10,907 bases of DNA from Candidatus Helarchaeota archaeon (lineage in GTDB: Archaea; Asgardarchaeota; Lokiarchaeia; Helarchaeales; RDOG01): contig JALGVI010000107.1 in the NCBI GenBank assembly GCA_029838215.1, forward strand, positions 1-10,907, read 5' to 3'. Shown here in pieces: positions 3 through 5,403 of the stretch; within the stretch, counting starts at the first letter, position 1; every line of letters begins with the position of its first letter. The notes under the pieces were generated by a model. The model ran no database searches. It saw only the letters and a list, made by a program, of their open reading frames with translations, and was not told the DNA's origin. The translations under genes were made by a program, and so were the position numbers.

Positions 3-491
3 GGTAAAACTTCCATAATCTTAAGTTCACGTCGGGGTACGAATTTATTTTCCTATTTTTCACTGAAACCAACAAAAGGCATTAGAATTACCGATCTTGA
101 AGATGAAGAAAATGTCTTTGCGATTTGGGATTTCGGTGGACAAGAACAATATCGTGATGATTATTTGGAGAAAATTAACGATTATTTTGATGATGTTGAT
201 AAGCTTATTTACGTAATTGATATTCAAGACACGGAGCGGTATGGAAAAGCATTAGAATATTTAAAAAATATCATTCAATTGGCACCCGAGACCTTAAAGA
301 ATGTAGAATTTTCTATTTACTTGCATAAATTTGATCCAGGTTTAGAGGGTAACGAAAAATTTTCAAATGAAGCTATTAGAAAGCAGATCATTGATAAAAT
401 CATTGAAATTGTTCCAAAAACTTATTCATTTCGAATTTTTAGAACAACCATTTATCACACATTTCAAAGAAATTTGTTTTATCACCAATAA
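3..491 (+). CDS. Rag/Gtr1-like small GTPase, 5'-truncated by the window edge
   Basis: The frame of the 165..491 ORF is open back to position 3: GKTSII (G1), KPTKG (G2), WDFGGQ (G3), YVID, HKFD (G4; HKxD is the Rag-family form) and TTIY (G5). The TTG at 165 is internal, not the start. Confidence 0.88.
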   Translation, partial: GKTSIILSSRRGTNLFSYFSLKPTKGIRITDLEDEENVFAIWDFGGQEQYRDDYLEKINDYFDDVDKLIYVIDIQDTERYGKALEYLKNIIQLAPETLKNVEFSIYLHKFDPGLEGNEKFSNEAIRKQIIDKIIEIVPKTYSFRIFRTTIYHTFQRNLFYHQ

Positions 492-514: not shown

Positions 515-958
515 ATGAAAGGCGTAAAAGCGGTTCTCATCTTGAAAAAAGATGGTGGGGTGCTGTTTAGTTACGAGATTTTTAATCAAGTATACGAACA
601 AGATGATGCTCGTCTTTTTTCGGGTTTCATTTCAGCAGTTCACTCATTCAGCCGCGAAATCGGTGAAAAGGGTATTGAATTTCTTGAACTCGGTCACTCC
701 ATGGTCTTCATATCCTTTTTTTCTAAGCTTGATCTTTTTTTCATCGTGATCAGTGATTTAAAGGCAAGTAAAAAGCAAATGATTGAGTTTCTAAATCTTA
801 TCAAGAAAAGGTTTGTCGAGAGATTTGGGAAAAAAATAGGCATTATAAGTAATGTGAATGAATTGGAAATGGCCGATTTCAAGGAGGATATTGAAAATGT
901 GTTAGAAATAGATTTGGCAAAACGGATCGAAGCAAACCTCGAAGCCTTATATTTCTAA
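515..958 (+). CDS. Stand-alone longin/roadblock-like domain protein
   Basis: 147 aa. The pattern VLILKKDGGVLFS...LFSGFISAVHSFSREI...FFIVISD...LNLIKKRFVERF fits the longin beta-beta-alpha-beta-beta-beta-alpha-alpha layout. Starts 23 bp after the GTPase stop on the same strand. Confidence 0.7.
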   Translation: MKGVKAVLILKKDGGVLFSYEIFNQVYEQDDARLFSGFISAVHSFSREIGEKGIEFLELGHSMVFISFFSKLDLFFIVISDLKASKKQMIEFLNLIKKRFVERFGKKIGIISNVNELEMADFKEDIENVLEIDLAKRIEANLEALYF

Positions 959-1708: not shown

Positions 1709-2090
1709 TGCAAGCTGCTCTGATATCAACAAGTTCTGGAGAAATCGTGTAGTAAGGCAGGTCTTCAAGGAACACCTTTGCCCTACCTTTCCAAGAATGC
1801 ACTTTTTTGAATAACTCCCAGTGCTGTTTTCTATATAGGATGGGTAAATCTTCGCTTGGTTTTTATAAAATTGTGGAAGAGCAAGGATTCGCATTCTTAT
1901 CATAAAATTTAAGAATGAAAATGTCTTGAATTGATTACAATTGAGATCTGCATGATATTATTAAAGGAATTGATAAGATGAGAAGAAGGGACTGCGAAAT
2001 TAGTTCCCGGCCGTAATTGTTTTTTCACTACAGTAGTAGTGGATGTCAGGAGTTCGTGCAGATTTAAGCCAAGAAGGAGCGTTTTTTTTA

Positions 2091-5072
2091 ATGTCAAAGA
2101 TAAGTGAAATGCCGAAACACGTGAAAATCCAAGATATCGAAACCGAAATGTTGAAATTCTGGGACGATAACAAGGTCTTTCAAGAGATATGGAAGCGGGC
2201 TGAGAAGAAAAAATATCCTGATTGGAAATTCATCGATGGTCCTCCATACACGACAGGGAGCATACATCTCGGCACGGCTTGGAATAAGGTACTGAAAGAT
2301 TTTGTCATTCGCTACAAAGCAATGAACGGGATGCACGTGCGCATAAATCCCGGGTATGACATGCACGGATTGCCCATTGAAGTGATAGTGGAGAAGAAGC
2401 TCAATATCAAGAACAAGAAAGAAATTGAAGCCGACATCATGAAATTCACGGGAGAATGCAAGAAATTCGCATTAGATAATTTATGGATAATGAATGAGTC
2501 ATTCAAGCGCTTGGGTTGTTTTTATGATTGGGATAACCCTTACATGACGATTCATAACAAGTATATTGAAGGCATTTGGTGGGCTCTGAAAAAAGCATGG
2601 AAAAACGGCTATCTTTACAAGGGCGTTCGGCCGCTAAACACTTGTCCGAGATGTGAGACTGCTTTGGCAAAGCACGAATTCGAATATTATGAAGTTGAAG
2701 ATTATGCACTATTCGTGAAATTGAAGGTCAAAGGAAAGAAGAATGAATATCTCACGATTTTTACGACGACACCTTGGACGTTACCTGCCAATTTAGCTGT
2801 TATGGTCAATCCGGAATATGAATACATACGTGCAAAAGTCGAAAATGAAGTTTGGATAATGTCAAAAAATCTTGCCACTTCCGTGATCGGTGGACTTCTC
2901 GGAAAAGACTTTAAAGTCATCGAGGAGTTTTACGGCGAGAAGCTTGAAGGAACGAAATATACACCACCTTTGGCAAAACAGGTACCAAAGAACATGGAAT
3001 TTGAAAAGGAGTCTGAGAATACGCATACAGTGATTCTCAGCGAAGAATATGTCACTTTAGATAAAGGTGGAACCGGTCTTGTTCACGCGGCTCCAGGACA
3101 CGGACAAGAAGATTTCGTTGCTTGTGGTCCTCAGTCGAAGTATGCAATCCCTGCATTTTGTCCTGTAAATGAAAAAGGTGTTTTCACCGAAGATGGTGGG
3201 AAATATGCGGGTCTGTATATAAAAGATGCTGACCCTGTCATCATTGAAGACCTGAAGAAAAATGGAATTCTATTGTCTGATGAGAGATTGAAGCACGAGT
3301 ATGCTCACTGTTGGCGTTGCAAGAGTCCTCTCATATATCGAACCATCCCACAATGGTTCTTCAAAATGAGCGCATTAAATGACCTGATGGTTGAAGAAAA
3401 TAAAAAAATATTTTGGCAACCAGAATTTGCAGGTCGATGGTTTGAGAACTGGATCAAGAACTTATGGGATTGGTGTATTAGCCGTCAGCGGTATTGGGGA
3501 ACTCCTTTATCCATTTGGGAGTGTGATAAGTGCGACGACATTGAAGTCATAGGTTCAACAAAAGAACTCGAAGATAAAGGATTAAATGTCCCGGAAGATT
3601 TACATAGACCGCATATTGATGGCGTGACATGGAAATGCAAGTGTGGAGGAACGAAGAAAAGAATCCCTGACGTGCTTGATGTCTGGTTAGATTCTGGAAG
3701 TGGTGAATGGTCTGTCTATCCATCGGTAGGACGAGAAGAAAATTATGACAATTGGCGTATTGGCGATTTTATCTTGGAAGGAAAGGATCAAATTCGGGGC
3801 TGGTTTAATACATTGACGAGTTCAAGCATTGTCGCAACCGAGCACCGCGCGTTTAATGCGTGCTACATGCATGGATTCGTGATGGATGAACAAGGACGAC
3901 CGATGAGCAAGTCTTTAGGAAACGTCACGGCACCAGAAGAAATTATCGAGGAACATGGCTCTGAAAGTTTTCGCATGTACAGCGTTAAATCTACGGCACC
4001 CGGGGAAGATTTGAAAATCGTGCGATCAGAAATTCGTGATCAACATCGAGCACTTGACATTCTTTATAATACGTTCGTATTCGCCAGCACGTTCATGGCT
4101 CTTGACGACTTTGATCCCACGAAGATTAGTTTGAAGAAGTTGGACTTGGAAGTCATAGACAAGTGGATCCTGAGTCGCCTGAATTCGCTTACCAAAAATC
4201 TCACGGGAGCATTTGAAGTTTATAACTTACCCAAAATTCCAAAATTCACGCAGAAATTTTTCATTGATGATTTGAGTCGCTGGTATATCCGAATCATCCG
4301 ACCTCGAATTGGCAAATCTGCCAAAAAAGAAGTAAGACATGCTGCATTACGCGTGCTTTTTGAAGTCCTGTCTCGATTGACGACTCTCCTTGCTCCGCAA
4401 GTGCCTTTTCTTGCTGAGAGGTTCTATCAAGGACTCGTTCGACCTTTCTATCCAAAACTTCCAAAGAGCGTGCACATGCTCGAATGGCCAAAAGTGGAAG
4501 ATTCAAGGATCGATCCCGAACTGGAAGGTGCAATGGAACAAGTCCAAAGAATTGTAGAAGTACTTCTTTCAATTCGCCAAGAACAAGGGATCAAGACGAG
4601 GTATCCCTGTCTGAGAGCCGTTATCAAACCAAAGAAAGACGCTCCAAAAATAGAACATCTAAACGCTGTTATTGAGAATCAAGCAAACGTGAAAAAAGTT
4701 GAAATCTCCAAGAAAAAAATAGCAAAAGACATGCCCTTCAAGGAAACTGCATTCTTTGATATAGCCCTTGACACAACTGTTACTGAAGAACTTAAAGCCG
4801 AACGGTTAAGTCGGGAACTCACGCGGAGCATTCAACAAGCTCGAAAGAAAAACAAGTTTCAGATCAAGGAACAAATCGAAATAGTCGTTACTTGTAGCGA
4901 TGCCAATACTTTGGAAACACTAAAGACATTTGAAACGACGGTAGGTCCCATCATCGGGGCAACTAAGATGGAATTCATGGCGAAAAAACCGAAACGAGTT
5001 GATAAATCATTCTTTCAAGGAAAAGTAAAGTATGATGAAGTGCTCGTTGAATTCTACTTCAAGAGAGCCTAA
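2091..5072 (+). CDS. ileS: Isoleucine--tRNA ligase, archaeal/eukaryote-like type
   Basis: DGPPYTTGSIHLGTAWNK (HIGH equivalent), GYDMHGLPIE, editing-domain TTTPWTLP and GGTGLVHAAPGHG, WCISRQRYWG, EGKDQIRGWF, PMSKSLGN (KMSKS equivalent), Zn knuckles and the C-terminal RELTRSIQQARK extension. ATG 2091 (SD-like GGAG at 2076-2079) is preferred over 2043. Confidence 0.98.
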   Translation: MSKISEMPKHVKIQDIETEMLKFWDDNKVFQEIWKRAEKKKYPDWKFIDGPPYTTGSIHLGTAWNKVLKDFVIRYKAMNGMHVRINPGYDMHGLPIEVIVEKKLNIKNKKEIEADIMKFTGECKKFALDNLWIMNESFKRLGCFYDWDNPYMTIHNKYIEGIWWALKKAWKNGYLYKGVRPLNTCPRCETALAKHEFEYYEVEDYALFVKLKVKGKKNEYLTIFTTTPWTLPANLAVMVNPEYEYIRAKVENEVWIMSKNLATSVIGGLLGKDFKVIEEFYGEKLEGTKYTPPLAKQVPKNMEFEKESENTHTVILSEEYVTLDKGGTGLVHAAPGHGQEDFVACGPQSKYAIPAFCPVNEKGVFTEDGGKYAGLYIKDADPVIIEDLKKNGILLSDERLKHEYAHCWRCKSPLIYRTIPQWFFKMSALNDLMVEENKKIFWQPEFAGRWFENWIKNLWDWCISRQRYWGTPLSIWECDKCDDIEVIGSTKELEDKGLNVPEDLHRPHIDGVTWKCKCGGTKKRIPDVLDVWLDSGSGEWSVYPSVGREENYDNWRIGDFILEGKDQIRGWFNTLTSSSIVATEHRAFNACYMHGFVMDEQGRPMSKSLGNVTAPEEIIEEHGSESFRMYSVKSTAPGEDLKIVRSEIRDQHRALDILYNTFVFASTFMALDDFDPTKISLKKLDLEVIDKWILSRLNSLTKNLTGAFEVYNLPKIPKFTQKFFIDDLSRWYIRIIRPRIGKSAKKEVRHAALRVLFEVLSRLTTLLAPQVPFLAERFYQGLVRPFYPKLPKSVHMLEWPKVEDSRIDPELEGAMEQVQRIVEVLLSIRQEQGIKTRYPCLRAVIKPKKDAPKIEHLNAVIENQANVKKVEISKKKIAKDMPFKETAFFDIALDTTVTEELKAERLSRELTRSIQQARKKNKFQIKEQIEIVVTCSDANTLETLKTFETTVGPIIGATKMEFMAKKPKRVDKSFFQGKVKYDEVLVEFYFKRA

Positions 5073-5074
5073 TA

Positions 5075-5088
5075 CAAAAATTTATAAT
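5075..5088 (+). promoter_or_regulatory. Candidate BRE + TATA box for the tRNA gene
   Basis: CAAAAA followed by TTTATAAT. This would start transcription near 5110, about 25 nt before the mature tRNA 5' end. Confidence 0.5.
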
Positions 5089-5104: not shown

Positions 5105-5156
5105 ATGTACGAAAAGAAGATTCGTGATAAACCGAGCTCCCGTAGCTCAGCCGGAT

Positions 5157-5175
5157 TGAGCTGAGTCTCCTGGAA
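5157..5175 (+). other. tRNA intron 1 (19 nt, D-loop, position 20a/21)
   Basis: Central helix CCGG 5151-5154 / CTGG 5170-5173, bulge AT|T, inner stem GAG/CTC, and 3' AA|A facing AG (bulge-helix-loop form). Splicing gives the normal D-loop AGCCGGAUA. Confidence 0.8.
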
Positions 5176-5192
5176 AGAGCGCTGGCCTTATA

Positions 5193-5254
5193 GGAGTGCA
5201 ATGGAGCAAGCACGTCCTGCATCTTGACCATGCTCTTTACATTCACTTGAAGAA
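5193..5254 (+). other. tRNA intron 2 (62 nt, canonical 37/38)
   Basis: Central helix CTTA 5187-5190 / GAAG 5249-5252 (3 pairs plus an A.G mismatch), bulges TA|G and AA|A, inner stem GAGTG 5194-5198 / CACTT 5244-5248. Confidence 0.85.
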
Positions 5255-5276
5255 AGCCAGAGGTCGCGGGTTCGAG

Positions 5277-5307
5277 CGATTTGGAGTAAGCACTCCAAAA
5301 ACGGAAC
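5277..5307 (+). other. tRNA intron 3 (31 nt, T-loop, position 59/60)
   Basis: Central helix TTCG 5271-5274 / CGGA 5302-5305, bulges AG|C and AC|A, and an 8-bp inner hairpin TTTGGAGT 5280-5287 / ACTCCAAA 5292-5299. Confidence 0.82.
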
Positions 5308-5403
5308 ACCCGCCGGGAGCACCTCTTTATCACTTGCTCGAATTCATTCTAATTAATGCGAAAAAATCCGTTCACGTATTTTTTATGATTCAAGAAAAAG
5401 GAT

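Follow-up and report, generated by a model that had tools for sequence, protein, structure and literature searches.

A three-intron tRNA-Ile(UAU) gene behind ileS as the probable AUA reader of an Asgard archaeal genome

Reading AUA as isoleucine without misreading AUG is one of the few points where the three domains use different chemistry, and the archaeal solution consists of TiaS and agmatidine. The locus studied here raises the question of whether an Asgard archaeon reads AUA with an encoded UAU anticodon. The window (the whole stretch of DNA analysed, 10,907 nucleotides) comes from a draft MAG of 170 contigs (94.3% complete, 6.2% contamination), which we call G000; the five families of its class are called f1 to f5. 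A preliminary description, made from the letters alone, had placed an archaeal tRNA with a UAU anticodon at 5182-5260. We found that this stretch is the anticodon arm, CTGGC-CTTATA-(62 nt)-A-GCCAG, of a tRNA gene with three introns (D-loop, 37/38, and 59/60) at window positions 5136-5321 on the forward strand. Very probably, the gene encodes a functional tRNA-Ile(UAU) precursor, whose product would be the AUA reader replacing the tRNA-Ile2(CAU)/agmatidine/TiaS route. The features of the locus are listed below.

2043 to 5072, + strand: ileS, isoleucyl-tRNA synthetase of 1009 aa (NCBIfam TIGR00392 equivalog and Pfam)
5076 to 5088, + strand: putative promoter in the ileS-tRNA spacer, an A-rich BRE-like run and the TATA box TTTATAA
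5136 to 5156, + strand: exon 1, with the acceptor 5′ strand GCUCCCG, U8 and A9, the D-stem 5′ strand GCUC, and the D-loop AGCCGGAU
5157 to 5175, + strand: intron 1, 19 nt, in the D-loop before A21, relaxed BHB
5176 to 5192, + strand: exon 2, with A21, the D-stem 3′ strand GAGC, G26, the anticodon-stem 5′ strand CUGGC, and C32-A37
5189 to 5191, + strand: anticodon UAU, within exon 2 (C32 U33 U34 A35 U36 A37)
5193 to 5254, + strand: intron 2, 62 nt, at the canonical 37/38 site, near-strict BHB
5255 to 5276, + strand: exon 3, with A38, the anticodon-stem 3′ strand GCCAG, the variable loop AGGUC, the T-stem 5′ strand GCGGG, and the T-loop UUCGAG
5277 to 5307, + strand: intron 3, 31 nt, at 59/60, placed by the BHB search and the intron-less relative L182
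5308 to 5321, + strand: exon 4, with A60, the T-stem 3′ strand CCCGC, the acceptor 3′ strand CGGGAGC, and the discriminator A73

Exons, introns, and splice register

Once all three introns are removed, the product is a class I cloverleaf of 74 nt and of canonical form, for which the ARAGORN call is tRNA-Ile(tat). It has a 7-bp acceptor stem, a 4-bp D stem, a 5-bp anticodon stem, and a 5-bp T stem. The anticodon loop has 7 nt, the T-loop is of the UUCRA type, and U8, A14, G18G19, A21, and U33 are all present. GCTCCCG (5136-5142) and CGGGAGC (5314-5320) form the acceptor stem through 7 Watson-Crick pairs without a mismatch, and A73 comes next. After A73, CCA is not encoded (window 5321-5325, CCTC); most other tRNA genes of G000 encode it.

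Under the BHB rule, there is a 4-bp central helix with two 3-nt bulges, each 3′ of a central-helix strand, and the cut falls after the second bulge nucleotide. Every splice pair of the anticodon arm was scored on this basis, with the 5′ exon end at 5182-5199 and the 3′ exon start at 5240-5261 (about 400 pairs). The pair 5192/5255, which corresponds to 37/38, scored 22, versus 14 for the runner-up. Scores of at least 22 were reached by 1.25e-5 of random genomic pairs, which amounts to an expectation of about 0.005 for the roughly 400 pairs. The outer helix of this BHB motif has 5 bp (CUGGC/GCCAG), and the inner helix also has 5 bp (GAGUG/CACUU). In the central helix, where the intron pairs with U33-U34-A35, three of four positions are paired (C32:G, U33:A, and U34:A, plus an A35.G mismatch), and both bulges have 3 nt (A-A-A38 on the 3′ side and U36-A37-G on the 5′ side). 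Furthermore, the outer helix, the central helix, and the 3′ bulge of 3 nt all reappear when 5182-5260 is folded for minimum free energy.

After this splicing, the loop reads CUUAUAA (C32-U33-U34-A35-U36-A37-A38), and T5189 becomes U34 of a UAU anticodon. The 36/37 register is equivalent, giving an identical mature sequence. This is the anticodon that the preliminary description had derived from either of these two registers, and both the BHB score and the ARAGORN call of tRNA-Ile(tat) bear it out. When only the other two introns were removed, ARAGORN in intron mode chose a 34/35 register, with UGA (‘Ser’) and a 5-nt variable loop; this mode takes no account of BHB geometry. The earlier reading had named UAA, UGA, and AGA as anticodons that do not fit a 5-nt variable loop, and the choice of ARAGORN is indeed one of these misfits.

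The 37/38 intron shows the features of an archaeal BHB intron, whereas the 59/60 and D-loop introns show them in relaxed form only. For the T-loop intron, the best pair is 5276/5308 (59/60), with a fully paired central helix (UUCG/CGGA, 4/4), a strict 3′ bulge (A-C-A), a relaxed 5′ side, and an 8-bp inner hairpin (UUUGGAGU/ACUCCAAA). An alternative T-loop pairing, GUUC/GAAC, was rejected because it would leave a T-loop of 5 nt. For the D-loop intron (5156/5176), the central helix is CCGG/CUGG, the bulges are A-U-U and A-A-A, the inner hairpin is GAG/CUC, and splicing restores A21. One alternative register exists through the repeated GAGC, and it alters position 21 only (U for A). The two relaxed motifs score 13-15, a level that also arises by chance. 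Thus, their motifs alone are not significant, and these two introns are defined by the cloverleaf and by relatives.

The preliminary description had expected the three introns to hide the gene from routine annotation, and this proved to be the case. The unspliced gene gave no ARAGORN match in the window, with or without intron mode, and no Rfam tRNA match in the window at E up to 1. In addition, an Rfam RF00005 search over the whole G000 genome missed it. As a BLAST query, the unspliced gene brought up no relative, its exons being too short. An automated annotation would therefore score G000 as unable to read AUA, which accounts for 2% of its coding sequence.

Orthologues across five families

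A survey of relatives for the same gene found UAU orthologues in all five families of the class.

L182, a metagenomic contig (f1): introns in the D-loop and at 37/38; gene 64 nt behind an ileS whose IleRS is 77% identical
G001 (f1): introns in the D-loop, at 37/38, and at 44/45; gene behind ileS
G004 (f2): introns in the D-loop and at 37/38
G005 (f3): anticodon arm with four intervening pieces; the mature anticodon arm equals that of G000 in a spliced alignment
G032 and G007 (f4): several introns; reached only by a short pattern search
G054, G137, G038, and G280 (f5): a single 37/38 intron of 45-59 nt, with 3-4 of the 4 central pairs

All 11 orthologues, from the five families, contain CTTATA, and the 37/38 site is used in every chromosomal one. 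The top-scoring BHB motif of L182 and G001 again lies at 37/38. In G004 and G054, too, U34 pairs with an A in the BHB central helix. Nine mature orthologues were compared: standard pairing is kept in 187 of 189 stem cells, both partners have changed at 14 of the 21 pairs, and CUUAUAA, G26, and A73 are invariant. The loop stays constant although the introns of the orthologues vary in sequence and length. The D-stem of L182 carries a compensatory change from G10:C25 to A10:U25. The compensatory stem changes, together with the invariant loop, G26, and A73, indicate that the gene is under selection as a tRNA with a UAU anticodon.

The T-loop of L182 is uninterrupted, and its sequence, TTCGAGA, is exactly the predicted 59/60 splice product of G000. 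The predicted 59/60 junction is thus confirmed, at the level of sequence, by an intron-less allele. Meanwhile, the D-loop intron has the same site and geometry in G000, G001 (helix UUGG/CCAA), and L182.

The f4 orthologues were out of reach of BLAST with the mature sequence, an f5 gene, or an f4 Ile(GAU) gene as query, and only other tRNAs were matched. The Rfam listing of G032 contains no UAU tRNA because the f4 gene has several introns. The short pattern that reached the f4 genes had 41 matches in five TiaS-positive genomes, one of them being the G104 tRNA described below.

Part of the 37/38 intron is itself conserved within the family (CUUGACCA..CUCUUUACA). A block in its 3′ third (window 5223-5248) is kept in G000, L182, and G001 and consists of CTTGACCA, two variable bases, and then CTCTT-T/G-ACA; it occurs once in the G000 genome. 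In G001, the intron is divergent towards its 5′ side. We do not claim a guide RNA in this intron, as there are no C/D boxes and no convincing H/ACA shape (the hairpin of G001 is too small for a pocket).

Other tRNA sequences were also seen in these relatives. In G005 (contig C91, L044), the tRNA-Ile(UAU) gene is preceded, at a distance of about 70 nt, by a partial copy of the tRNA 5′ half (AACTCAGCTTGGACAGAGTGCCA...). In addition, L144 (619-2118) and L147, both of f4 genus g13, hold 16 intron-less tRNA genes packed in about 1.5 kb. These arrays include a tRNA-Ile(tat) with A1-U72, while the chromosomal tRNAs of the same genomes are intron-rich. The arrays look like cargo of a virus or mobile element.

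The window’s ileS matches TIGR00392 with 870 bits (cut-off 621) and ends 63 nt upstream of the tRNA on the same strand; across G000, L182, and G001, the spacing between ileS and the tRNA is 63-64 nt. Among the ileS loci of 30 relatives, the tRNA stands behind ileS only in G000’s own family. The element at 5076-5088 would be an archaeal promoter, and its block, AAAATTTATAAT, is kept in the nearest relative, L182. In several relatives (G001 and four f4 genomes; L009, L013, L015, L016, and L020), the ileS match contains a single in-frame TAA or TAG, which could reflect recoding, an mRNA intron, or an alignment that extends beyond the start codon.

TiaS, tRNA census, and AUA usage

The TiaS_FLD profile (PF08489) had no match in G000, and tblastn with four Asgard TiaS proteins against this genome gave nothing below E = 0.8. 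The domain is absent from 119 of 119 genomes of the class (f1 to f5). In the phylum, it was found in 122 of 268 genomes, including nearly all members of TiaS-bearing families, and all four archaeal control genomes were positive. In addition, a TilS domain was not found in G000.

Intron-tolerant scans located 41 tRNA genes in G000 of about 46 expected, and about five were not found in the draft. The NAU set consists of an initiator CAU (C23:30582-30672), an elongator CAU (C75:6684-6856), an Ile GAU (C89:29558-29632), and the UAU gene. There was no third CAU tRNA among these 41 genes, and the census alone leaves room for a hidden one. The preliminary description had considered that the lineage switched to, or added, a UAU tRNA. 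Since TiaS was not found and no third CAU tRNA was seen, we conclude that the lineage probably switched to UAU and did not merely add it. The demand for such a tRNA is considerable: in 881 long ORFs of G000, 22% of the Ile codons are AUA, at a frequency of 20 per 1000 codons, and the ileS of the window contains 17 AUA codons.

The exclusion between TiaS and UAU tRNAs is imperfect. In G104, a TiaS-positive single-contig genome, ARAGORN calls a solitary intron-less tRNA-Ile(tat) at L198 1465-1537 (- strand), so TiaS and UAU tRNAs can co-occur; by manual parse, the acceptor and T stems of this tRNA are imperfect. Another TiaS-positive genome, G129, has only 14 tRNA matches in its Rfam listing.

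An anticodon-loop intron is present in about half of the G000 tRNA genes, and several genes are interrupted two or three times. The genome has two genes with the EndA catalytic domain, at C168:14475-14729 and C1:87468-87725, which would fit a heteromeric endonuclease of broad specificity. The C75 CAU tRNA (- strand), the only one of elongator type, has two 29-nt D-arm introns. The loop is nearly duplicated within its anticodon-loop intron (CTCATAAAGGC and CTCATGAAGCGC); a good BHB motif is missing in every register, and each plausible one yields CUCAUAA.

Among the tRNAs of G000, the closest to the UAU gene by sequence is Thr(GGU), not Ile(GAU). Thus, the isoleucine identity rests on the anticodon, A37/A38, A73, and the linkage to ileS. 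As in TiaS-less archaea with tRNA-Ile(UAU), there is an encoded UAU with A37, A38, and A73 in a genome where TiaS was not found. Isoleucine charging and AUA reading are supported indirectly, as the linkage to ileS and the AUA usage would suggest. Most likely, AUA is read by tRNA-Ile(UAU) in place of agmatidine in G000.

The proposed course of events is as follows. The TATA-type promoter behind ileS would drive transcription of the tRNA precursor. The archaeal splicing endonuclease would then excise the three introns at the BHB motifs, a ligase would join the exons, and CCA would be added post-transcriptionally. The neighbouring IleRS, of the eukaryote/archaeal type, would recognise the anticodon, A37/A38, and A73 and charge the 74-nt tRNA with isoleucine. 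The charged tRNA would decode AUA, in replacement of the tRNA-Ile2(CAU)/agmatidine/TiaS route that the class appears to have lost. U34 may be modified or unmodified, and it would have to avoid AUG.

Different readings of the locus have to be weighed against this. If the T at 5189 stood wrongly for C, through a fault in sequencing or assembly, the anticodon would be CAU and the tRNA a tRNA-Ile2 or an additional tRNA-Met. A draft MAG with the contamination given above leaves some room for such an error; however, the T is shared by every orthologue in the five families, and it pairs with A5250 in the BHB central helix, where C would mismatch and where the partner is A in G004 and G054 too. The base is thereby indirectly supported. 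Moreover, a tRNA-Ile2(CAU) could not be matured in a class where TiaS is missing throughout. A C-to-T error is very unlikely, and we give this reading practically no chance. Hardly better placed is the idea that a different register is used to cut the anticodon intron, so that the anticodon becomes UGA, UAA, or AGA and the tRNA serves an amino acid other than isoleucine. The 34/35 intron offered by ARAGORN speaks for it, but no other register has BHB support (14 at best, versus 22), and the top motif of L182 and G001 is the 37/38 one. In addition, Ser and Leu tRNAs need a long variable arm, while the variable loop here has 5 nt, and the mature loop is the same across orthologues whose introns differ.

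The gene might also be a relic, silent or in decay, or be carried by a mobile element, with AUA read by something else. This is a little less improbable than the former two, since two of the three introns have relaxed motifs, the gene lacks the CCA that most tRNAs of the genome encode, and intron-less UAU tRNAs occur in the mobile- or viral-looking 16-gene arrays of some f4 genomes. Nevertheless, all 21 stem pairs are intact, with compensatory changes across five families, and members of the family share both the promoter block and the location behind ileS. Introns are also common among the tRNA genes of G000, as described above, and we found no other decoder for a codon that amounts to 2% of all codons. 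Thus, we consider this reading very unlikely, and a functional tRNA-Ile(UAU) precursor remains by far the best explanation of the locus.

Comparison with known systems

UAU is rare among archaeal isoleucine tRNAs. The preliminary description had named a few lineages such as Nanoarchaeum and Korarchaeum, in agreement with the literature (PMC6000648, PMC8450103), and ARMAN should be added (PMC3239211). Nanoarchaeum equitans, Korarchaeum cryptofilum, and ARMAN (Micrarchaeota/Parvarchaeota) have a tRNA-Ile(UAU) (‘tRNA-Ile3’) without TiaS or tRNA-Ile2(CAU) (PMC6000648, PMC8450103, PMC3239211). The genes of Korarchaeum and ARMAN-2 bear introns, and the 37/38 intron of ARMAN-2 was spliced in vitro (PMC6000648, PMC8450103, PMC3239211). 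G000 resembles these archaea in its UAU encoded on an elongator tRNA and in a genome without TiaS, here with two CAU tRNAs among the 41 found. In contrast, G000 is an Asgard archaeon, its gene stands next to ileS and has two of its three introns at non-canonical sites, and the loss of TiaS is class-wide (0 of 119). The strategy (a UAU tRNA-Ile without TiaS) is therefore not new among archaea, having been described in these few lineages. The gene is genuine, and the first reading was correct in each part that could be checked.

In Asgard archaea and Thermoproteales, multi-intron tRNA genes have BHB introns at 37/38, at 59/60, and in the D-arm, and standard tRNA finders miss them (bioRxiv 10.64898/2026.10.13.758758). 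The gene of G000 is like these genes in its intron sites. The same 2026 preprint, on interrupted Asgard tRNA genes, makes no mention of Ile, UAU, AUA, or TiaS. Within the library searched, we found no report for Asgard archaea of a tRNA-Ile(UAU) in place of TiaS/agmatidine. The class of G000 has dropped the archaeal solution, to judge from 119 of the 119 genomes searched.

Among other systems, tRNA-Ile2(CAU) with agmatidine and TiaS has the same task of reading AUA but not AUG; however, it uses C34 plus an enzyme, whereas U34 is encoded in G000. The tRNA-Ile2(UAU) of Mycoplasma mobile is similar in that a UAU tRNA replaces a modified-C route (TilS there, TiaS here), but this organism is bacterial, its U34 is unmodified by mass spectrometry, and its bacterial-type IleRS is adapted via Arg865 (PMC3575796). 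In Haloferax, a U34 mutant of tRNA-Ile carries cnm5U, and its binding follows the order AUA > AUG > AUU (PMC3895270).

The anticodon of eukaryotic cytoplasmic tRNA-Ile(UAU) is pseudoU-A-pseudoU (PMC3575796, PMC3895270). Like the eukaryotic one, the gene of G000 has an intron immediately after position 37, a UAU that would serve AUA alone, and an IleRS of the eukaryote/archaeal type (PMC3575796). However, the major Ile tRNA of G000 is GAU and not AAU/IAU, and the D-loop and T-loop introns are without eukaryotic counterpart. Thus, the proposal that this lineage uses a eukaryote-style system for AUA can be kept in part: the UAU anticodon and its adjacent intron agree with it, and the other Ile tRNA does not. 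It is conceivable, yet unlikely in our view, that the intron-bearing tRNA-Ile(UAU) of TiaS-less Asgard archaea was the direct forerunner of the eukaryotic one and that the 37/38 intron is needed for a modification of U34/U36 that lets the tRNA read AUA but not AUG. If so, eukaryotic AUA decoding would predate eukaryogenesis. Retention of the 37/38 intron is weak evidence for an intron-dependent modification because about half of the G000 tRNA genes have such an intron. The residue at U34, and the need of the intron for its installation, could be tested in cultured relatives. The class includes single-contig genomes of 4.36, 4.3, and 6.0 Mb, which possibly stem from cultured relatives.

As for the lineage of the window itself, the nearest named IleRS homologues belong to Candidatus Helarchaeota MAGs (60-65% identity). 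Gtr1/RagA-type GTPases and longin-domain proteins are typical of Asgard archaea. At 3-491 (+ strand), the window encodes a small GTPase of the Gtr1/RagA family whose frame runs off the 5′ end, and downstream of it, at 515-958 (+ strand), a protein with a weak, sub-threshold match to the longin domain. Taken by these matches, the two would be a eukaryote-like pair.
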